NCBI GenBank assembly: GCA_910586565.1
Contig: CAJUIT010000012.1
Location: 7,768 to 71,767, forward strand
From: an uncultured Muribaculaceae bacterium
GTDB taxonomy: Bacteria; Bacteroidota; Bacteroidia; Bacteroidales; Muribaculaceae
Direction of reading: 5' to 3'
Length of the DNA stretch: 64,000 nucleotides
The translations under genes and the position numbers were made by a program. The notes under the pieces were generated by a model, which worked only from the letters and a program-made list of their open reading frames with translations, did not search any database and was not told the DNA's origin. Positions 5,163-63,158 of the stretch are shown piece by piece. Numbering within the stretch: the first letter of the stretch is position 1; each line of letters begins with the position of its first letter.

Positions 5163-5330
5163 CGTTGAATTAACGGAACACTAACTGCACAGCCTCCTCA
5201 TACTTCGGTAGCGAGGGGGCTTTCTTTATCGCTTTCCAGCACTTCCGGACAATCTCATCCTCCACATATTACCAAAATGCTGACGCCTCATAGTTTCAAG
5301 CCGCGAGGCCCATCCCTCCCTTATCAAAAT
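5163..5330 (-). pseudogene. Fragment duplicate of the 3-prime end of the dus gene
   Basis: 5163-5270 matches 7719-7826 (108 bp, 8 mismatches by hand). 5271-5330 continues to match 7897-7953 after a ~70-bp deletion. No intact reading frame. Confidence 0.7.
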
Positions 5331-5437
5331 GCCATAAAATTCCCCAAAAGCAAATCCACAAGCTGTACAAAACCGAATTTAAATAGAATTTTGACAACAA
5401 AATACCCGATAAGCTTGCACGGATAATTTATTGATTG

Positions 5438-5445
5438 TACTTTTG
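5438..5445 (+). promoter_or_regulatory. Bacteroidota -7 promoter box TACTTTTG
   Basis: Matches TAnnTTTG consensus, 35 nt upstream of the ATG at 5480. Confidence 0.4.
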
Positions 5446-5479
5446 CGCATTCATCACTCCCATCTTCGGGATAAAAATA

Positions 5480-7684
5480 ATGCGTATGAAAAAAATCTTT
5501 ACTCTTGCGCTTTCCGCAACACTGCTTGCCGGCACATCGTTGTCGGCAATAGCCGAAACAACCACTGCCTACGGCTACACGTGGGGCGAACGTAACAATT
5601 ATTCCTGCGGCTTCATATCATTCGATGCAAGTGCTCCGCAAACTATCAAACGTATTAAAACCATCTACAGCGATTACCACGTGTCGGCCGGCGAATACAT
5701 CGACGGAAAGCTTTACACCTTCAGAGTGGAAGTCGACGATTTCGGCAATGTTCTCCCCTATTCCTACACCATCTATGACGGCACTACCTACGCAGAGGAG
5801 AGCGACATCAAGAAATACGACGAATCGCGCGTTGTTGACATGACATTCGACTACACAACCAACACGCTATATGCGTTGGCAGAAAATGCTGTGACGAGCG
5901 GTTCGGTTGTCCCGACCAACCTCTATAGCATTGATATGGCAACCGGCAACAGAACCCTCATCGGCTCTCCCGGCGCACTAATTGCCATCGACGGGTATGG
6001 CAACCCCGACAATGACGGCCTCATCACATTGGCATGCGACGCCGAAGGGCAGCTCTATGCCATGTCGGCTTACCGATATTTTTACAAAGTTGATAAATTC
6101 ACCGGCAAAGTTACCCAGATTGGGGAACGTCATAACCTCGGCACCCGTGCCGACTTCCAGTCGATGGCATTCACCGCCGACGGAAAACTCATGTGGGCTC
6201 AGAACCATCCCAGCTACGGGCACTTTGTTGAAATAGATCTGAACACCGGAAATCCCGGAGGTTTCGTAGATTTCAAAACCGATTACGACAAACTCAACAA
6301 GCTCGGCAACGATGCACAGGTGACAGCCCTCAACTTCCGCGACCGCGAAATCAACCGCCAGGCTCTCAAGGCCGTTGACAAGCTGTCGGCTGAAGTCAAT
6401 ATTCCTGAGGTACACTCCGTTACACTTTCGTGGGAGTTGCCATCTGCCGACATCAGCGAACAGGCAGCGGCTCCAAATACCATAAAGGTTTACCGTCTGG
6501 GCACTTCTCTGCCAATTGCGGAACTTGACGGCTCGGCCACCTCTTTCACCGACACTGAAGCCCCCGACGGCACAGTGGGCTACGAAGTCATTGCCGAAAA
6601 CGAAGCAGGATTCGGCTATCCGGCATTCACTGACGTTTTCGCCGGTTTCGACATGCTCTCGGAAGTGACTGACCTAACCCTGTCGGTTGAAGGACGCACT
6701 GCAACAATAACATGGACGGCACCCACATACACCCTCAACGGAGGTTACGCCGACTATGAAAACATCACCTACAACATCTACCGCCTCCGCGGCACTACCG
6801 AGGAAATCGTCAAGTCAGGTCATGAAGATACCGAGTTCACCGAAACTATCGATGCCGACGGCAACTACAGCTATATGGTAGAACCGGTATCGGGTACCGT
6901 TGTCGGGAAGCGGGCTCAGTCGGAATCATTCCTACTGCAGTCATCAGCCTCACTGCCCTACTTCACCGGGTTCGAGGATGATGAGGATAACTCTCCCTGG
7001 AGCACTATCAACAATAACCCCAACAACCCCGGCTGGACTATCGGAAAGGAATACACCCAATATGAAGGTAAATGCGCCAAATCCTATCAGGGAGCCAAGG
7101 CCGAACCTGCCAATTGCTGGCTCATATCGCCGGCATTCAACCTCGATGCGGGACGATACACCATTGACTACTACGTGAACGGTTCGAGCTACGACACACA
7201 CTCCTACGACGTTGCTGTCGGTACAAACGCCGACGATGTGGAAAGTTTCTCACAAATGTTATACTCCATCGACGATGCCATAGAATATGATGCCAATGCC
7301 ACACCCAAGGGATGGAAACATGTTGAGCTCGAATTCAGCATCCCAACAGCTGGAACATATCACATCGGATTCCACGACCGCACACAAGCTCCTTATGGCT
7401 ACGCATCGCTCTATCTCGACAACGTGAGCATCGACAGCAAGAGCTCGTCGATAGAGAATGTCAACGCTGAATCTGAAGCTGGAATATCCATAAGCGTCGC
7501 CCGCGGCGTAATCACGGTTGCTTCTGCTTCGGCAATAGCATCTGTGGAACTCATCGACATGCAAGGTCGCACCGTAAAAGCAAGCACGACAGCCGTTCTC
7601 GATGCCACAAGCAATCGCGGTGTCTACATCGTGAGCGCCACCACCGTTGACGGAGTCCGAACCATTGCCAAAATCGCGCTCTGA
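5480..7684 (+). CDS. Secreted multi-domain protein with T9SS C-terminal sorting domain (FN3-like repeats, choice-of-anchor/MAM-like module)
   Basis: ORF-track ORF 5435-7684 trimmed to the ATG at 5480 (MRMKKIFTLALSATLLAGTSLSAIA signal peptide), because the -7 box lies inside the longer ORF. The C-terminal ~80 aa ending GVYIVSATTVDGVRTIAKIAL resemble a Por-secretion CTD. Confidence 0.8.
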   Translation: MRMKKIFTLALSATLLAGTSLSAIAETTTAYGYTWGERNNYSCGFISFDASAPQTIKRIKTIYSDYHVSAGEYIDGKLYTFRVEVDDFGNVLPYSYTIYDGTTYAEESDIKKYDESRVVDMTFDYTTNTLYALAENAVTSGSVVPTNLYSIDMATGNRTLIGSPGALIAIDGYGNPDNDGLITLACDAEGQLYAMSAYRYFYKVDKFTGKVTQIGERHNLGTRADFQSMAFTADGKLMWAQNHPSYGHFVEIDLNTGNPGGFVDFKTDYDKLNKLGNDAQVTALNFRDREINRQALKAVDKLSAEVNIPEVHSVTLSWELPSADISEQAAAPNTIKVYRLGTSLPIAELDGSATSFTDTEAPDGTVGYEVIAENEAGFGYPAFTDVFAGFDMLSEVTDLTLSVEGRTATITWTAPTYTLNGGYADYENITYNIYRLRGTTEEIVKSGHEDTEFTETIDADGNYSYMVEPVSGTVVGKRAQSESFLLQSSASLPYFTGFEDDEDNSPWSTINNNPNNPGWTIGKEYTQYEGKCAKSYQGAKAEPANCWLISPAFNLDAGRYTIDYYVNGSSYDTHSYDVAVGTNADDVESFSQMLYSIDDAIEYDANATPKGWKHVELEFSIPTAGTYHIGFHDRTQAPYGYASLYLDNVSIDSKSSSIENVNAESEAGISISVARGVITVASASAIASVELIDMQGRTVKASTTAVLDATSNRGVYIVSATTVDGVRTIAKIAL

Positions 7685-7725
7685 TTCAGGAACGGCAACT
7701 TAGCTTTAGGCAAATCCCCGTTGAA

Positions 7726-8667
7726 TTAACGGAAAACTGACTGCACAGCCTCCTCATACTTCGGTAGTGAGGAGGCTTTCTTTATCGCTTTCCAGCTCTT
7801 GCGGCCAATCTCATCCTCCATATATTCCCAGAACGGTTTGATTTTTGCGAGCACCTGCGCATCGCCGCACAAACAATCGGAATAATGGGCGTAGATGCCG
7901 GAATGCAGACGCCTCAGCGCCTCAAGCCGCTCACCGCGGCTCCATTCCCTTCCGTCGCGCCATTCGGCGATAAGTGACGGGCGGGCAAGCAGGCCACGCC
8001 CCACCATCACTCCATGCAACGCGGGATAACGCTCGAGAACCGAACTAATGTCGGCAGTAGAGCGCAAATCGCCGTTGAACACAACAGGGTGGCGGCTCTC
8101 ATTCAACACCCCCTCAAAAGCTTCGATATGCATGTCGCCGGCATATTGCTGCGCGGCTATCCTCGGATGAACCGTGATGTGCGTGAGTGGCAACCTGTTT
8201 AAAGCTTCCACAGCCGGTTTCCATTCATCGGCATCAGTCACACCTACGCGCATTTTTGCCGAAACAGCAACGCCCTCGCCAATAAGTGGCAACAGCGCCT
8301 CGAGCAGTTCGGGCCGACGGAGTAAGGCGGCCCCACGACCGTGCAACACCTGTGGCTTGAAAGGGCAACCCATGTTAATGTCGAGGCAATCATACCCGTT
8401 TTGCAACACCGCTTCCTTCAGAAGCGTGAATTCGGCCTCATCCTTGAAAATAACCTGCGGCACAACTCTGTGGTTGGCGCATAGCGGGGAGGTTATGTTG
8501 CGGATATCGCGCTGACGCACCACCCCTTTCTCCACCCTCATGAACGGGGTGAAATAGGCATCGGCACCTCCATATACTTCGGCATGGAAATGGCAAAAAG
8601 GGGCATCGGTAAAGCCCTGAAGAGGAGCTGCGAAAATCTTATATGACATAACCTGTGATAATGACAC
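7726..8667 (-). CDS. tRNA-dihydrouridine synthase family protein
   Basis: 313 aa. N-terminus KIFAAPLQGFTDAPF, DINMGCP catalytic Cys context, TIM-barrel Dus layout. Confidence 0.85.
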   Translation of the reverse strand: MSLSQVMSYKIFAAPLQGFTDAPFCHFHAEVYGGADAYFTPFMRVEKGVVRQRDIRNITSPLCANHRVVPQVIFKDEAEFTLLKEAVLQNGYDCLDINMGCPFKPQVLHGRGAALLRRPELLEALLPLIGEGVAVSAKMRVGVTDADEWKPAVEALNRLPLTHITVHPRIAAQQYAGDMHIEAFEGVLNESRHPVVFNGDLRSTADISSVLERYPALHGVMVGRGLLARPSLIAEWRDGREWSRGERLEALRRLHSGIYAHYSDCLCGDAQVLAKIKPFWEYMEDEIGRKSWKAIKKASSLPKYEEAVQSVFR

Positions 8668-16282: not shown

Positions 16283-16837
16283 ATGACTGAATTAGAAAAA
16301 ATGCGGGCAGGCATGCTCGCCAATATGGATGACCCCGAAATTCAACAGAGTTTCATCCACGCCAAACATATGGTGGCGCGATTACGCACCATGTGCACCT
16401 ACGACACCGACTTCCGCGCGGTGCTTGAGGAGCTTGTGCCCGGCATACCTGCAACGTCAATCATCTGCCCGCCGTTTCACTGCGACCACGGCCACGGCAT
16501 AAAGCTCGGGCAACATGTGTTTATCAACGCCAACTGCACATTTCTCGACGGAGCCGAAATTACCATCGGCGATCATACCCTCATCGGTCCCGACGTGAAA
16601 ATCTACACACCCCACCATCCGCTCGACTATGTTGCACGGCGCGAGAACCGGGAATATGCCTACCCCGTAGCCATCGGCTGCGACTGCTGGATTGGCGGTG
16701 GCACCATCATCTGCCCAGGCGTAACCATCGGCGACCGCTGCGTAATTGGAGCCGGGAGCGTAGTAACCAAAAACATCCCCTCCGACACCATCGTTGCCGG
16801 TAATCCCGCACGCCCCATCCGCACCTCCAAACCTTGA
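16283..16837 (+). CDS. maa: Maltose/galactoside O-acetyltransferase (hexapeptide-repeat sugar O-acetyltransferase)
   Basis: 184 aa. N-terminal Mac domain followed by left-handed beta-helix hexapeptide repeats (IGDHTLIGPDVKI, IGGGTIICPGVTIGDRCVIGAGSVV). Confidence 0.85.
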   Translation: MTELEKMRAGMLANMDDPEIQQSFIHAKHMVARLRTMCTYDTDFRAVLEELVPGIPATSIICPPFHCDHGHGIKLGQHVFINANCTFLDGAEITIGDHTLIGPDVKIYTPHHPLDYVARRENREYAYPVAIGCDCWIGGGTIICPGVTIGDRCVIGAGSVVTKNIPSDTIVAGNPARPIRTSKP

Positions 16838-16875
16838 GTAGGGGCAGACTTTGGTGAATCTTAATTAAAATGATA

Positions 16876-16927
16876 GAGTCGTTAAGGTCATTAGGGTCGT
16901 TAGGGTCCTTAAGGTCTTTAACGACTC
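16876..16927 (+). terminator. Hairpin with 10-bp stem (GAGTCGTTAA / TTAACGACTC) enclosing four tandem 9-mers (nTTA[A/G]GGTC); probable maa terminator
   Basis: Read directly. 9-mers GTTAAGGTC ATTAGGGTC GTTAGGGTC CTTAAGGTC at 16881-16916. The same structure is repeated at 19818-19869. Confidence 0.45.
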
Positions 16928-16999
16928 AATTTGTCTCTCGGGGGCTTGATTGATGAAACGGAGAGTGGAGGGTGGGAGAGTGATTTTATGGAAAGAATG

Positions 17000-17761
17000 T
17001 CAAAGGGCTCTGGCCGGGCGATTGCACAGGGGGAGGGTTCGGAAGAACCGGGAGCCTGTGATTGGGCGGAGTCCGGCACACCGCATGCTTCGGACGAGGG
17101 CGAGGGGTGGGCCCTCACGGGTGGATTCTAATAATGGCGGGGGATTGGGTGAAGTGTGGGTGATGAAGGGGATGATGAGGTAGGTGGTTGCATTGCGGAG
17201 GATGACACGCGGGGAGGGATTGGGTGTGATGCGCTGCAGCTGCAGAGGGAATTTGCGGCCTTTGGAAGTGTCTTGATAGTGGAGGATGATAAGGCCGCTG
17301 CCGACGTAGGGGAAGATGGCCCTGCAGATGTCAAGGAAATTGAGATGGTTTCTACGGAAGGGACTGTAACGGCGGAAGTTCTGCATGTTGAGCAGCAGAG
17401 CAAACTCGGGGTTGCAGCCGCGCAGCCGGGAGGGGTTGCGGGGTGAGATGTTCCACAGCGCCTTGTGGCCGGGGAGGTGGGTGCGGGTGCTACCGGTTGC
17501 ACCCTCGCAGATGATGGCGAGGGTGTGTGGAAGGGAGAGTGAGAGGCGGTAGTGGAGATAGCTGCGAAGGATTGGGGTGGAGTCGATGCCCGGAGGGTCG
17601 ATGATGAGGAGGGGTGAGGATGTGGATGCGCGCTCAAGGCGTGATATGACGATGCGCTCGGGCCGTGTGAGTGGACGGCCGAGGAAGCGTGCGAAGCCAC
17701 GAGAGACGGGCATCGGAGGTCGCAACGACAGTGAGCGGGATGAGGTGATGAGCTTGCGCAT
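17000..17761 (-). CDS. Conserved protein of unknown family (ORF253, copy A)
   Basis: ORF-track ORF 17000-17833 trimmed to the conserved MRKLIT start. About 85% aa identity to 62146-62910. Nucleotide differences between copies are almost all third-position in this frame (10 of 11 synonymous in one 30-codon stretch). Confidence 0.8.
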   Translation of the reverse strand: MRKLITSSRSLSLRPPMPVSRGFARFLGRPLTRPERIVISRLERASTSSPLLIIDPPGIDSTPILRSYLHYRLSLSLPHTLAIICEGATGSTRTHLPGHKALWNISPRNPSRLRGCNPEFALLLNMQNFRRYSPFRRNHLNFLDICRAIFPYVGSGLIILHYQDTSKGRKFPLQLQRITPNPSPRVILRNATTYLIIPFITHTSPNPPPLLESTREGPPLALVRSMRCAGLRPITGSRFFRTLPLCNRPARAL

Positions 17762-17768
17762 CAAGGCG

Positions 17769-17776
17769 CAAAGATA
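17769..17776 (-). promoter_or_regulatory. -7 promoter box TATCTTTG for ORF253 copy A
   Basis: Reverse complement of CAAAGATA. Ends 7 nt before the ATG at 17761. Conserved at 62918-62925 in copy C. Confidence 0.5.
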
Positions 17777-17924
17777 AAAGGGCGCCCCGCGAAGAGTGGG
17801 CTTAAAAGGCGCGAAATTTTGAGGGGAGGACAAAAGTTTTCAACTTTTCACGGCTCCAAAAAGAGTTCAAACCACCGTTATATCGGATTCTTGGCTTTTT
17901 TCATATGTCAATTTAATCACAAGC

Positions 17925-18830
17925 TTGAGGCTCACGACTTCACGCCGTGAGCCTCAGGCACTCTTTATGTTCACAAAATCAGATTCAACAGTCAATTTGT
18001 TTGCTCTCACCGATGAAGAGCTTGCTGCAATCATGGCTTTTCCGACACATCGTGCAGCGATTGACCGTGCAAGAGATATATTTCTGTTCTCTTGCTTTAC
18101 CGGATTGCGGTTTTCGGATGTAATAGGATTACGCTGGTCGAATATAGATAGAGATATGCTCGACTGCACAGCTCAGAAAACCAACCATCGCCAACGGTTT
18201 GCGTTGGCTACGGAAGCCTTGCGCATCATCGACAAATATCCAAAGTCACCAGATGAACCCGACCCTCGCGTTTTTCCTCAAATCTCCAATCAGAAATATA
18301 ACGCACACTTGAAAGAGGTTGGTAAGTTGGCAGGTATGACGGGCGATTGGATTACCGAGAAACAAAGCGACAGGGAAAAGACAAGAGAAGTGCGCCCAAA
18401 ATATGAGCTGCTTACTTCTCACGTTGCCCGGCGCACATTTGTGACGATGTGTCTGCGAAAAGGTATGTCACCCGAAGATATACGCGCCGTCACAGGACAC
18501 ACCACCGCCGACATGATGATGAAGTATGTGAAGTTCGACGATGAAAGCAAGCGCGAGAAGATGAGCATACTTAATGAAGCTCGTCAACAAGAGTGCGAAA
18601 CCGTATTTGATTATGAGATTGGCAGCGAGGAGCGAATGAAACTCGGCATACCGGAACAGTCAGCCTACTTTGAAATGTTTGAAGGTGATACTGCATCAGT
18701 CACCGCACACCACGCATTGCTATTTCATCTTCGCCATGACTTTGACCACCGAGCTACATACATGAAGCGTTTGCCAAATGACAGATTCAATGATACTATT
18801 GATGTGCTAATTAGAATAAAGGAATACTGA
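17925..18830 (+). pseudogene. Tyrosine recombinase (phage-integrase family) lacking its N-terminal DNA-binding domains
   Basis: Catalytic-domain motifs are present (FTGLRFSDV, LTSHVARRTF, GHTTADMMMKYV). Only ~20 codons precede the catalytic domain, and these lie in the repeat block. No ATG start. An unrelated ~100-aa C-terminal tail follows. Confidence 0.75.
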
Positions 18831-18988
18831 CGACCAATTATATTTCGTTTTTTTATACTGCACAAAAGGGAGGCGATGATGCTGTCGGTCTTGCCGGTGC
18901 GTCGTCCTGCGACTATAATGGTGGTGTTCGCGCCGATAAGCTGCGTAAGTCGTTGGGACTTGTTAAAGTAAACTTTATTGTCGGCCAT
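18725..18988 (-). pseudogene. Possible 5-prime fragment of a P-loop NTPase gene
   Basis: The first ~40 aa contain Walker A AGRRTGKT. The remainder is low-complexity read-through overlapping the integrase 3-prime end. Confidence 0.3.
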
Positions 18989-19024
18989 TGGGTTTTATAT
19001 TAAAGCATTTATGTACCTTATTTT

Positions 19025-19255
19025 ATGACAACCGGACGTTGGATATTTGTAATACTGTTTTGGGGATATGGAATTTATGCCCTTATAAGAGGTTTTTGGC
19101 TCAAAAAGCATCTAAATCTTGCTCCCGGGGATTTTATGTTTGAGCAAGAACAAATGGAGTGGAAGCGAAATATAAAATCAGGGGTATTATGTATTATCCT
19201 TGGATTTGTAATATTCTTTTTTCGCCACATCATTTTTCCCTCCATTTTGAATTAG
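19025..19255 (+). CDS. Small hypothetical membrane protein (2 TM)
   Basis: 76 aa, two hydrophobic helices, AT-rich relative to surroundings. Confidence 0.4.
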   Translation: MTTGRWIFVILFWGYGIYALIRGFWLKKHLNLAPGDFMFEQEQMEWKRNIKSGVLCIILGFVIFFFRHIIFPSILN

Positions 19256-19360
19256 CGAGTCAAATTGAGAAAGGCTCGCCGTCAGGCGCACCAGCCTCCG
19301 GCTGACGTCCGCCGTCTTGGCCGGCAGTGCGTTTCACTACGTTTAGGTTTTAAGTTTAAG

Positions 19361-19676
19361 TTATGAGTGACGAGGTGATTTTTTGCGTGAGGTCGTCTTA
19401 CCTTTTACCTTGTCACTCTGCCCTATGACGTATGTATCGTATGCCTCCCAGTTGGCGTGCAGCTTCTTGTCGAGCGATATAAGTTCTTTGAGGAACGGGT
19501 AACGCTCGGAGTCGGGGCAGGTGGCGCTGTCGAGCGAAAGCGAGCGGAGGCGCAGATGCAGTTCGCGCATACGTTGGAGGATAGAGAGGTTTTCAACGTA
19601 TTTCGCCTTGATGTCGTCGGGCAGTGCGTCGTGGTCGGCACGTTTGCCTTTTGGCTGCTCGTCGGCTTTAGCGGCG
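19361..19676 (-). pseudogene. 5-prime-truncated gene fragment of unknown function
   Basis: The ORF 19361-19777 only obtains a start codon by reading antisense through the duplicated maa fragment. The plausible coding part (…DALPDDIKAKYVENLSILQRMRELHLRL…) begins at the repeat boundary. Confidence 0.4.
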
Positions 19677-19780
19677 ACCGATGCGTGATTGGAGCCGGAA
19701 GCGTAGTAACCCAAAACATCCCCTCCGACACCATTGTTGCCGGCAATCCCGCACGCCCCATCCGCACCACCAAACATTGA
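19673..19780 (+). pseudogene. Duplicate of the last 35 codons of maa
   Basis: Translates GDRCVIGAGSVVTQNIPSDTIVAGNPARPIRTTKH*, against GDRCVIGAGSVVTKNIPSDTIVAGNPARPIRTSKP* in the intact gene. Confidence 0.85.
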
Positions 19781-19910
19781 GAGGGGCAGACTTTGGGGAA
19801 TCTTAATTAAAACGATAGAGTCGTTAAGGTCATTAGGGTCGTTAGGGTCATTAAGGTCTTTAACGACTCAACTTGTTTCTCTCGGGGCTTGATTGATGAA
19901 ACGGAGAGTG

Positions 19911-19999
19911 GAGGGTGTGGGAGAGTGATTTTATGGAAAAGGTGCGAAATTTTGAGGGGGGAAAACAAAATGTTTTCAACTTTTCACAGCTCCAAAAAG
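19911..19999 (-). repeat. Copy B of the repeated unit: shell only, ORF253 cassette absent
   Basis: GAGGGTGTGGGAGAGTGATTTTATGG-AAAAGG-TGCGAAATTTTGAGGGG...TTTTCAACTTTTCACAGCTCCAAAAAG. Both shell halves are abutted. Confidence 0.65.
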
Positions 20000-20141
20000 A
20001 TTCAACAAACCGTTATCTCAGCTTTTTGGAGTTTGCGACAGGGTGGTGTTGGCTATTGTAGATTAAACACACGGCTGAGGCTCACGACTTCACGCCGGGA
20101 GCCTCAGGCACTCTTTATGTTGATTTGCGGTTTGCTGATTG

Positions 20142-37766: not shown

Positions 37767-37792
37767 TCCACGTAATCCGTGAGAAAAAGCAA

Positions 37793-37920
37793 GAGGGTGT
37801 GTCAGAATGGCTCGTCTGGGTCGTCGCTTGCGGGATTCGGTCTCGGTCACGTACTTCAGTACGCTCCCATCGACCTCACCCACAAGCTCCTACCATCCAA
37901 ACCATTCTGACAGCACCCTC
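37793..37920 (+). repeat. 128-bp intergenic element with ~18-bp terminal inverted repeats (copy 1)
   Basis: TIRs GAGGGTGTGTCAGAATGG / CCATTCTGACAGCACCCTC. High identity by eye to the reverse complement of 50002-50129. Confidence 0.8.
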
Positions 37921-50001: not shown

Positions 50002-50129
50002 GAGGGTGCTGTCAGAATGGTTTGGATGGTAGGAGCTTGTGGGTGAGGCCGATGAGAGCGTACTGTAGTACGTGACCGAGGCCGAATCCAGCAAGCGACG
50101 CCCCAGATGAGCCATTATGACACACCCTC
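50002..50129 (-). repeat. 128-bp intergenic element with terminal inverted repeats (copy 2, inverted)
   Basis: The reverse complement aligns end to end with 37793-37920. Confidence 0.8.
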
Positions 50130-50311
50130 GTGCAGTTTTGCAGCAAATCCGTCGGGGAGAGCCTGCAGCATCGCCTCAAGCCTGATAGCAGCCGGCGTGG
50201 CACACCCGTGCTCAAAACATGAAACGAAACTCATTGTCGGCTCTTCACAAACTCTTTCCCGAGGAAGCAAAAAAATCTGCAATGTTTGCTTCATGTCACA
50301 AAAAATTTTAC

Positions 50312-61924: not shown

Positions 61925-61933
61925 CCCACTCCA

Positions 61934-62112
61934 TTCGGCGTAGCCGCACGTAGAGCCGCCATACATGGCGGCTTGTAACATTTCCGTAAGCGTGGCGGTA
62001 GCGAGTGGCCGGAGACCACTGGTGGATGTAAATTCGTGAGTAAGTGGATGATCGGGGAAGCGCTAAGATACAAGCCGCCATGTATGGCGGCTCTACGTGC
62101 GGCTACGCCGAA
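61934..62112. repeat. Perfect 44-bp inverted repeat separated by a 91-bp spacer
   Basis: Arms 61934-61977 (TTCGGCGTAGCCGCACGTAGAGCCGCCATACATGGCGGCTTGTA) and 62069-62112 (exact reverse complement). Each arm contains the sub-palindrome GCCGCCAT-AC-ATGGCGGC. Confidence 0.9.
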
Positions 62113-62145
62113 GGCAGCAAGGTGGGGTATTTAATGGAAAGAATG

Positions 62146-62910
62146 TCAAAGGGCTCTGGCCGGGCGGTTGCACAGGGGGAGGGTTCGGAGGAACCGGGTG
62201 CCTGTGGTTGGGCGGAGTCCGGCGCACCGCAAGGTTCGGACGAGGGTGTGGGGCGGCCCCTCACGGGTGGATTCTAATAGTAGCGGAGGCGGTTGCGGTG
62301 AGGTGTAGGTGATGAATGGGATTATGAGGTAGGTTGTGGCGTTGCGGAGGGTGATGCGAGGGGAGGGATTGGGTGTGATGCGCTGTAACTGCAGGGGGAA
62401 GTTTCGGCCTCTGTTGGTGTCTTGATAGTGGAGGATAATCAGGCCGCTGCCAACGTAGGGGAAGATGGCCCGGCAGATTTCCAGGAAGTTGAGGTGGTTC
62501 CTACGGAAGGGGCTGTAACGGCGGAAGTTCTGCATGTTGAGCAACAAGGCGAACTCGGGGTTGCAGCCGCGCAGGTGGGAGGGGGTGCGGGGGGAGATGT
62601 TCCACAGCGCCTTGTGGCCGGGGAGGCGGGTGAGGGTGGCGCGGGTTGCGCCCTCGCAGATGATGGCGAGGGTGTGTGGGAGAGAGTGCGAAAGGCGGTA
62701 GTAGAGATAGTTGCGGAGGATTTCGGTGGAGTCGATGCCGGGAGGGTCGATGATGAGCACGGGGGAGGAGGTGGATGCGCGCTCAAGGCGGGATATGACG
62801 ATGCGCTCGGCCCGCGTGAGGGAGCGGCCAATGAAGTGTGCGAAGCCGCGTGAGACGGGCATGGGTGGACGCAACTTGACGGGGCGGGATGTGGTGATGA
62901 GTTTGCGCAT
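62146..62910 (-). CDS. Conserved protein of unknown family (ORF253, copy C; 254 aa)
   Basis: Trimmed to the conserved MRKLIT start. Paralog of 17000-17761 with a synonymous-biased substitution pattern. Confidence 0.8.
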   Translation of the reverse strand: MRKLITTSRPVKLRPPMPVSRGFAHFIGRSLTRAERIVISRLERASTSSPVLIIDPPGIDSTEILRNYLYYRLSHSLPHTLAIICEGATRATLTRLPGHKALWNISPRTPSHLRGCNPEFALLLNMQNFRRYSPFRRNHLNFLEICRAIFPYVGSGLIILHYQDTNRGRNFPLQLQRITPNPSPRITLRNATTYLIIPFITYTSPQPPPLLLESTREGPPHTLVRTLRCAGLRPTTGTRFLRTLPLCNRPARAL

Positions 62911-62925: not shown

Positions 62926-63046
62926 AAAGGCTCGTTGGTGGGGAGGGGGCTTAAAAGGCGCGAAATTTTGAGGGGGCGGCAAAAGTTTTCAACTTTTCAC
63001 AGCACCAAAAAAAATTGGGGGAGAGAAGAGTGGGGAGCTATGATAC

Positions 63047-63158
63047 AATCGGCGGGCTTCGCACGCCTGTCTTTTTGCGAGCGGTAGAATACCCCCGACG
63101 CCTACGCTCCGCTACGGCAGCGGGGGTTACGAAGAAATCGGCGGGCTTCGCACGCCTG
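63047..63158 (+). repeat. Two exact 23-nt direct repeats AATCGGCGGGCTTCGCACGCCTG, 89 bp apart
   Basis: Copies at 63047-63069 and 63136-63158. The spacer contains a 7-bp-stem GC hairpin (ACCCCCG...CGGGGGT). Confidence 0.85.

Follow-up and report, generated by a model that had tools for sequence, protein, structure and literature searches.

Two diverged copies of one gene lie about 45 kb apart on the minus strand of a 64,000-nucleotide stretch of DNA (hereafter the window, at its full length) from an uncultured Muribaculaceae bacterium (GenBank assembly GCA_910586565.1, contig CAJUIT010000012.1, positions 7,768 to 71,767). They are genuine protein-coding paralogs under purifying selection and belong to a small, unannotated protein family, all of whose source-named members so far come from Muribaculaceae. 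Taking the evidence as a whole, we lean toward an explanation in which the family proteins have a terminase-like fold with degenerate catalytic motifs, would act as nucleic-acid-binding pseudo-ATPases, are accompanied by a 3' stem-loop, and are encoded within a cassette that is gained and lost. The open reading frames (ORFs) and their core coding regions are as follows.

17000-17761, minus strand: copy 1 ORF, 253 amino acids, with a TGA stop at 17000-17002
62146-62910, minus strand: copy 2 ORF, 254 amino acids, with its stop at 62146-62148
17087..17761, minus strand: copy 1 core coding region, codons 1-225, with an N-terminal basic peptide, a predicted ASCE/terminase-ATPase-like domain (about residues 20-165), and a Pro-rich region predicted to be disordered (from dN/dS 0.17, codon-position bias, AlphaFold2 core pLDDT >90, and Foldseek)
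62233..62910, minus strand: copy 2 core coding region, codons 1-226 (from BLASTP and Nei-Gojobori comparison)

The two proteins are identical at 219 of 254 residues (86% by BLASTP) with a single 1-residue gap that is exactly 3 nt in the DNA alignment, much as an earlier note on this DNA had estimated by hand (about 85% identity and one 3-nt indel). Across the core (17087-17761) the copies have 93 nucleotide differences, affecting 14% of core sites and falling at codon positions 1, 2, and 3 of the minus-strand frame as 22/16/55 (chi-square P = 6.6e-7), and the nonsynonymous (dN) and synonymous (dS) substitution rates are 0.075 and 0.437, a ratio of 0.17 (Nei-Gojobori). The third-position bias, the lack of which would have weakened the coding call of the earlier note, extends over the full core alignment, and its local counts are reproduced there (11 differences, 10 of them synonymous, in EFALLL...ICRA, and three, all synonymous, in IFPYVGSGLIILHYQD); the MRKLIT start that it chose is common to the homologs. 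The gene pair is old (dS about 0.44), and the note's view of an anciently diverged functional pair rather than a fresh insertion sequence copy holds; no transposase profile matches, and the near-identical copies expected of an insertion sequence or transposon are not seen. Purifying selection had been claimed for the whole ORF, and this is borne out for the core but not for the last 28 codons, which lack third-position bias and have a dS of 0.084 (a fivefold drop) and a dN/dS ratio of 0.85. The reading frame is intact in all 18 clusters of close homologs (a check in related genomes that the note had suggested), no other frame is intact in all homologs, and on the plus strand the frame with the same third positions does not stay open throughout.

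The composition of the genes is unusual. The GC skew at both is +0.35 to +0.42 on the plus strand, in agreement with the G-rich DNA of the earlier note, and C makes up 44 to 45% of the coding strand. Third-position C is 59 to 65% in the gene pair compared with 28 to 53% in 25 neighboring genes, and first-position G is 16% compared with 27 to 39%. These features reflect a protein that is rich in Arg (13%), Leu (14%), and Pro (11 to 12%) and poor in acidic residues, with an isoelectric point (pI) of 11.5 to 11.7 (about 11.6).

The family is sparsely represented in sequence collections. A word-index search of 5.8 billion clusters recovered only 18, none of them named, of which 15 are 72 to 100% identical to the window proteins and come from NCBI or ENA assemblies, and three are 55 to 57% identical and come from one JGI metagenome. 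Exhaustive profile searching of 1.84 billion representatives identified 59 proteins at E ≤1e-3 (27 at E ≤1e-10), nearly all of them 150 to 300 amino acids long, and a second word-index search with broad alignment found one remote member only. Family members are 200 to 280 amino acids long and share the motifs F-x-R-(F/Y)-L-G-R-x-L, E-x2-V-I-x2-L-E, (I/V)-D-P-P-G-x-D-S, R-G-x5-7-L-L-L-(N/D), S-P, F-P, and G-F-x-I-I-H, followed by a variable Pro-rich tail. The source-named members are all annotated as hypothetical proteins and are from Duncaniella muricolitica, Muribaculum intestinale, Duncaniella sp., Muribaculum sp., and a Muribaculaceae metagenome-assembled genome; the family is carried by cultured type strains (M. 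intestinale, WP_300972732.1; D. muricolitica, WP_280122083.1). The remote homolog P0066, carried by a 4.6-kb contig from Logan SRR30592896 (L007), keeps the family motifs without the C-rich composition; the contig is 32% G, 30% T, 19% A, and 19% C. The cluster tables, from which copy number is inferred, point to several diverged paralogs per genome at unrelated sites: each window paralog recurs in 56 to 99 contigs, one 1.70-Mb contig holds two divergent paralogs, and a single metagenome holds three.

The annotation libraries are silent on this family, as the earlier note anticipated in calling it unrecognizable. Pfam, NCBIfam, PHROGs, and PADLOC have nothing for the two window proteins even at E ≤1 to 10, and for 37 family members the same libraries give only scattered single-member matches (E ≥0.007) to unrelated or unnamed families; a profile search of PDB sequences gave a single match, which is spurious (bL21). 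There is no relative among 50,697 phage records or among plasmid records (tblastn), and we found no description of such a family in the literature. GTDB genome contigs searched with a protein pattern and a 21-nt DNA pattern gave no relatives, IMG/VR gave none, and metagenome contigs containing the 5' palindrome described below gave 47 chance matches with none coding for a relative, all of these collections apparently lacking the relevant genomes.

Structure prediction is more informative. AlphaFold gave a predicted local distance difference test score (pLDDT) of 57 with the 18 close sequences and of 75 with 37 diverse sequences (AlphaFold2), the latter model having residues 20-165 above 90 and a Pro-rich, presumably disordered part from about residue 170 to the end below 50. 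In Foldseek searches of predicted viral structures nearly all of the best matches are large terminases (E values of 1e-4 to 1e-2, probability about 1.0), and the terminase ATPase domains of T4 gp17, P74-26, and D6E are among the matches in the PDB. The model thus has an ASCE P-loop class fold like that of the N-terminal ATPase domain of phage large terminases, lacking its catalytic motifs. The inability of the earlier note to place the protein stands at the level of sequence families, none of which is matched with confidence, but not at that of fold.

The catalytic positions are altered throughout the family. The AlphaFold2 model places DPPGxDS at the P-loop position, in a loop joining strand 51-55 to helix 62-75, and RG...LLLN at the Walker B strand. 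The Walker A position reads D-P-P-G-x-D-S in nearly all of 98 sequences, with the Walker A Lys-Ser/Thr replaced, and a canonical G-K-[ST] occurs in only one (P0091, DPPGKSS), which may be either a relic of an ancestral Walker A or chance. At Walker B the same sequences have LLLN followed by M, A, or V, or LLLD followed by A, C, or T, such that the residue after N/D is never acidic. The nuclease domain is also absent, as there is no C-terminal RNase-H-like part and the fold ends at about residue 165, followed by the Pro-rich region. We infer that the protein has probably lost ATP hydrolysis. Two other interpretations of DPPGxDS were rejected: PP-loop ATP pyrophosphatases (S-G-G-x-D-S) have a similar G-x-D-S, but no such fold is among the top 50 Foldseek matches listed for the PDB and for viral structures and there is no Pfam match, and a HAD-like reading does not agree with the fold.

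The large terminase (TerL) ATPase domain of phages and herpesviruses (T4 gp17, 2o0h; P74-26, 4znk; D6E, 5oeb) is the best structural match, with about 160 to 200 aligned columns and the same order of elements, namely N-terminal helices, strand 1, a loop and helix 1 (P-loop position), the 'RG' with a hydrophobic strand (Walker B position), and a final strand. Unlike TerL, the family proteins have no Walker A lysine, catalytic glutamate, or nuclease domain, have no sequence-profile similarity to any terminase family (Pfam Terminase_*, PHROGs), and have a pI of 11.6; their genes are chromosomal, solitary, not in phages, and followed by a dedicated, putative 3' RNA structure. No small terminase, portal, or capsid genes are nearby at 13 distinct loci from other genomes. 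We do not count the family among the terminases, because it departs from them in all of these sequence and context features, though the fold matches. RecA/ASCE-fold pseudo-ATPases that serve as nucleic-acid-binding scaffolds offer a second comparison, in that the Elongator Elp4/5/6 ring likewise has an ASCE fold with degenerate nucleotide-binding motifs that is kept under selection; Elp456 binds tRNA. The fold matches to Elp4/5/6 are weak, however (8asv_H and 8at6_E, E values of 0.03 to 0.3), with no sequence relation, and these are eukaryotic multisubunit complexes whereas the family is a bacterial single gene.

The 3' end of each gene is constrained in a different manner from the core. Over the final 96 nt of the unit the copies are 93.8% identical, compared with 86.2% in the core and 48% just beyond, and this stretch appears to form a family-specific, covarying stem-loop that is previously undescribed, an assignment that we regard as supported rather than proven.

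16991..17086, minus strand: copy 1 3' stem-loop element (covariance model R1, 104.6 bits; also identity, covariation, and the TAG in remote homologs), with putative read-through codons 226-253 at 17003-17086 and the TGA (17000-17002) inside an invariant TTGAC
62137..62232, minus strand: copy 2 3' stem-loop element (covariance model R1, 108.7 bits), with putative read-through codons 227-254 at 62149-62232 and the stop at 62146-62148

The element is about 65 to 120 nt long across the family. Its outer stem of 5 bp is followed by the bulge (A/G)CUCC and a G-C/G-C step; then come the internal loop CCCAA / AAACC, an inner hairpin that ranges from absent to about 60 nt, and the tail YAAGMG-N4-TTGAC. 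Variants of the outer stem covary (GCCGG/CCGGC, GCCGA/TCGGC, ACCGT/ACGGT, and GCCGT/ACGGC, with CGAC/GTCG at locus L058 and ACATC/GATGT at L062), and the inner stem switches from CACAGG/CCTGTG to GATAA/TTATC. In a 10-sequence alignment 96% of cells are paired, compared with 23 to 40% when the partners are slid by 1 to 3 columns, and 6 of 13 pairs have a compensatory change; three cells are G-U on the mRNA strand, which favors sense RNA over DNA pairing. The covariance model searched through 199 kb matches only directly behind family genes, including that of L058, on which it was not trained (E = 0.016); the L007 contig has no 3' element. Rfam 15 reports only two tRNAs at the gathering threshold in the window and nothing meaningful at E ≤5 in 16850-17900.

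Remote homologs suggest how this element came to be translated. The 55%-identical JGI relatives retain its nucleotide blocks also where they differ in reading frame, and at five remote loci these blocks follow the stop codon, which is always TAG with CGGTA directly next. The position of that TAG is occupied in the window genes by ATG (copy 1, codon 226, 17084-17086) and TTG (copy 2, 62230-62232). Comparison of these loci indicates that the last 28 codons are read-through of a formerly noncoding 3' element after loss of the ancestral TAG in the window lineage. A plus-strand ORF at 16988-17131 (MERMSKGSGRA...) was rejected as a gene, as it has no codon-position signal in either frame and is kept between the copies only via the underlying conserved element.

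Several known types of 3' element were considered and rejected. There is no U-tract directly after the stem as expected for a terminator, and an integron attC site is similarly disfavored, as GCCCAAC is present as an R'' box (RYYYAAC) without a GTTRRRY partner (R'). Nor are these integron cassettes, as the units are solitary with their own promoter, and the sole nearby integrase, at one locus, is a truncated phage-type enzyme. TnpB and IscB are paired with an omega-RNA encoded at the 3' end of their own gene, and ribosomal-protein operons have autoregulatory mRNA structures. In architecture only, the family resembles these systems: a conserved, covarying structure lies at the 3' end of the ORF or overlaps it, is tied strictly to a single protein family, and stops at the limit of family-wide conservation. 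In contrast to them, the family has neither a nuclease domain (RuvC or other) nor transposon ends, and Rfam gives no match to families of the omega-RNA or HEARO type.

Each gene is also preceded by a conserved promoter motif.

17769..17776, minus strand: copy 1 -7 box TATCTTTG, Bacteroidota type, ending 7 nt before the ATG (from sequence and the consensus in PMC7366714)
62918..62925, minus strand: copy 2 -7 box TATCTTTG, ending 7 nt before the ATG (from sequence)
17753..17772, minus strand: copy 1 palindrome TTTGCGC-N6-GCGCAAG spanning the end of the -7 box and the start codon, invariant in 8 close loci

The motif TAnnTTTG is the Bacteroidota sigma-ABfr -7 consensus (PMC7366714), and it ends 7 to 8 nt before the ATG in 11 of 14 family loci and 17 nt before it in one more, with no obvious -7 box at L059 and L007; the boxes that the earlier note had seen in the two copies are therefore confirmed and kept across the family. 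With the box this close to the ATG the mRNA is predicted to be leaderless or nearly so, and each gene appears to be a self-contained, probably leaderless transcription unit. In B. thetaiotaomicron about 3.7% of 5' untranslated regions (UTRs) are shorter than 10 nt, and such 5' UTRs are rare in Bacteroides, several transposase mRNAs being among the examples listed (PMC7366714). An inverted partner to the TTTGC(G/C) of the box is always close by, at a place that varies by lineage (TTTGCGC-N6-GCGCAAA across the start codon in the close family, GCCGCAAAG-N9-CTTTGCGGC at L058, and CGGCAAA...TTTGCCG at L061), which may indicate an operator or hairpin. Copy 2 additionally has upstream of it a short direct repeat, ATCGGCGGGCTTCGCACGCCTG, at 63046-63067 and 63137-63158, and a GC-rich hairpin at 63091-63127 (ACCCCCG...CGGGGGT), with a related sequence upstream of the L001 homolog.

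Promoter core, ORF, and 3' element together make up a compact module, and the window contains a site from which it is missing.

16995..17806, minus strand: 812-nt gene module (promoter core, ORF, and putative 3' element; repeat families D2, D5-D8, and D10), bounded by a 3-nt AAA repeat (16992-16994 and 17804-17806)
17807..17870, minus strand: upstream 'P' block of copy 1, GTGAAAAGTTGAAAAC...CTCAAAATTTCGCGCC, shared with copy 2, the empty site, and close homolog loci
62943..63016, minus strand: upstream P block of copy 2 (repeat D7)
19923..20000, minus strand: 'empty' version, with the P block joined straight to the post-gene tail CCATAAAATCAC and no module, the junction being at 19937-19940 (from repeats and sequence)

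About 430 nt around copy 1, consisting of 16729-16994 (the 3' end of a hexapeptide acetyltransferase gene and intergenic DNA) and 17807-17971, are duplicated with 91 to 95% identity at 19672-20121, across an N-truncated tyrosine integrase from copy 1, and the duplicate is without exactly 16995-17806. The filled site reads ATGGAAA/GAATG...GCTTAAA/AGGCGCG (slashes marking the junctions), and the empty site ATGGAAAAGGTGCG. The module ends lie within about 10 nt of the conservation limits in the distant JGI relatives, and the empty site has both the P block and the CCATAAAAT tail, as do copy 2 and the loci of close homologs elsewhere. The module seems to behave as a cassette, gained or lost whole, that would have spread to several unrelated sites per genome, and the copies, being old, appear fixed, such that any mobility is historical. 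We note that the filled and empty comparison comes from one pair of sites, in which there is a 3-nt AAA repeat but terminal inverted repeats are lacking, and that simple deletion would fit it too.

The genomic neighborhoods of the family are varied. At the 13 loci from other genomes the neighbors are unrelated, housekeeping genes (e.g., L31/RF-1/NusB, trigger factor, biotin genes, glycoside hydrolases, and an RND pump), except that L061 is on a short contig with no called neighbor, and the gene downstream of family members is mostly convergent. There is no phage, satellite, or defense-island context at any of these loci, and the neighbors at L001, L003, and L008 share no genes with the window. 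Copy 1 adjoins an integrase remnant. There, the direct repeats of about 430 nt (16729-20121) flank an N-truncated tyrosine integrase gene at 17925-18830 (Pfam Phage_integrase) and two small unannotated ORFs, and the region looks like the remnant of an element whose integration site was the 3' end of the gene for the hexapeptide acetyltransferase (16283-16837); a fragment of that 3' end is duplicated at 19672-19780. Just 3' of copy 1, the intergenic DNA at 16860-16935 contains a short motif of tandem or palindromic character, GTCGTTAAGGTCATTAGGGTCGTTAGGGTCCTTAAGGTCTTTAACGAC, which is duplicated with the flank at 19803-19878.

Elements resembling miniature inverted-repeat transposable elements (MITEs) or REPINs are a further feature of these intergenic regions. 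They have terminal inverted repeats of about 49 nt (TTCGGCGTAGCCGCACGTAGAGCCGCCATACATGGCGGCTTGTA) and variable interiors, with arms in the window at 61929-61977 and 62069-62117 and elsewhere at about 5430-5865 and 6815-6990 of L008 and about 5790-5840 of L001. The sole copy in the 64-kb window is about 20 nt past the 3' end of copy 2, in L008 they are on both sides of the homolog, and seven of the nine repeat arms seen are within 600 nt of a family gene.

If the explanation toward which we lean is correct, the protein would act as a nucleic-acid-binding pseudo-ATPase without ATP hydrolysis, as suggested by its pI of 11.6, its lost motifs, and its continued selection. Its most economical partner would be the stem-loop on its own mRNA, either for autoregulation or within a ribonucleoprotein, and the recognition surface would then be the conserved unpaired CUCC / CCCAA / AAACC stretches. 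A more complete version, which we think possible but rather unlikely as it stands, is a minimal protein-RNA (or protein-hairpin-DNA) module in which a leaderless gene encodes a rewired, ATP-independent terminase-fold protein that specifically binds its own 3' stem-loop, all within a 0.8-kb cassette, restricted to Muribaculaceae, that spreads or once spread between chromosomal sites by a mechanism unlike that of known transposases. A number of observations weigh against parts of this explanation. The Foldseek E values are modest, and a RuvB-like helicase, thymidine kinases, PilT, and other ASCE ATPases match in the PDB at similar E values, such that 'terminase-like' denotes the best apparent fold match and not proven ancestry. 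Loss of the ATPase is read from motifs only, and the conserved D55/D60/S61/N125/H161 could form another active site. Folding-energy z-scores for the element are weak (-1.3 to -2.0), its covariation derives from about four to six independent lineages, it could act as DNA, and its pairing with the protein is wholly conjectural. Lastly, the module may have inserted into the P-block/tail sequence or a larger unit may have lost its interior, as the shared P block and CCAT tail fit both.

Two alternatives question the protein itself, and neither retains any appreciable probability. The ORF could be a by-product of a C-rich, stop-poor noncoding repeat or RNA gene and no protein gene at all, as might be suspected from the several open frames, the extreme composition, and a 3' end constrained at the nucleotide rather than the codon level. 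This is contradicted for the core by the strong codon-position bias and dN/dS of 0.17, and we reject it; moreover, the frame of this ORF alone is intact throughout the homologs, protein motifs are kept at about 25 to 39% identity (including in the L007 homolog of ordinary composition), a globular fold is predicted confidently, and there is no Rfam match. The earlier note had a weak impression of a degenerate permuted (beta-class or MT-A70-like) N6/N4 DNA methyltransferase, with DPPG as motif IV and FPYVGSG as motif I, and both window proteins do have the order DPPG ... FPYVGSG. However, GSG is unconserved beyond the close relatives, the remote homologs having FPILDASGF, FPMLSDGF, and WPLSHPWGF (FP-x3-5-GF, with no FxGxG), and a motif IV of the form (D/N/S)-P-P-(Y/F/W) is not kept, homologs having DRPG, DNEG, DSGH, and DYPD with a fourth residue that is never aromatic. 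Pfam N6_N4_Mtase and MT-A70 are unmatched even at E ≤10, no methyltransferase is in the top-50 Foldseek tables, and DPPG is at the P-loop position between strand 1 and helix 1, so the impression fails on fold as well as on motifs.

Two further alternatives accept the gene and assign it another role, and we judge both to be unlikely. The protein might be a decoy of phage origin, in which a dead terminase ATPase domain, retained by the host or by a satellite, would poison or divert the packaging motor of infecting phages through binding to the small terminase, the portal, or the large-terminase ring. Large terminases being the best fold matches, the loss of catalytic residues with purifying selection kept, the accessory, lineage-restricted, and multicopy distribution, and the integrase remnant next to one copy are all compatible with this, but the 13 loci have no phage, satellite, or defense-island context, the phage records, IMG/VR, and PADLOC yield no relative or match, and both the pI of 11.6 and the conserved 3' RNA element are left unexplained. 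The whole unit could instead be a minimal mobile or selfish DNA cassette, with the 3' stem-loop, and perhaps the promoter palindrome, as DNA-level recombination or transposition sites, and with either the protein binding these sites for the cassette itself or a host recombinase moving the cassette in trans. This would account for the absence of the 812-nt module from the duplicated flanks, its 3-nt repeat and the match of its ends to conservation limits, the several diverged paralogs per genome at unrelated sites, and copies in intergenic regions crowded with MITE-like repeats, and the transposase mRNAs among the rare Bacteroides 5' UTRs of <10 nt (PMC7366714) point the same way. It is disfavored by a dS of 0.44 and 56 to 99 contigs per copy with no sign of current activity, by the lack of a transposase, recombinase, or HUH motif and of terminal inverted repeats, by the presence of P block and tail at all filled sites with an empty site that may be a simple deletion, and by T-G wobbles that favor RNA over DNA pairing.

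Muribaculaceae are dominant and poorly characterized gut bacteria, and this lineage-restricted, multicopy, and selected family is missed by every annotation library; its presence in cultured type strains makes it directly testable. It would provide a clear case of a viral packaging-ATPase fold maintained outside any virus after the loss of its catalytic motifs, together with a new structured-RNA candidate strictly tied to one protein family, and the apparent stop codon loss that has pulled a noncoding structure into an ORF is a caution for gene callers. If the protein and hairpin are a functional pair, or if the unit is mobile, this would be a new class of small genetic element.

Two other repeats were noted in the window. 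A 137-nt inverted repeat (37784-37920 and 50002-50138) has arms that are 92% complementary and 12 kb apart and could mark an invertible or mobile segment, and a 115-nt direct repeat (5163-5277 and 7719-7833; 91%) lies around a 749-amino-acid ORF at 5435-7684.

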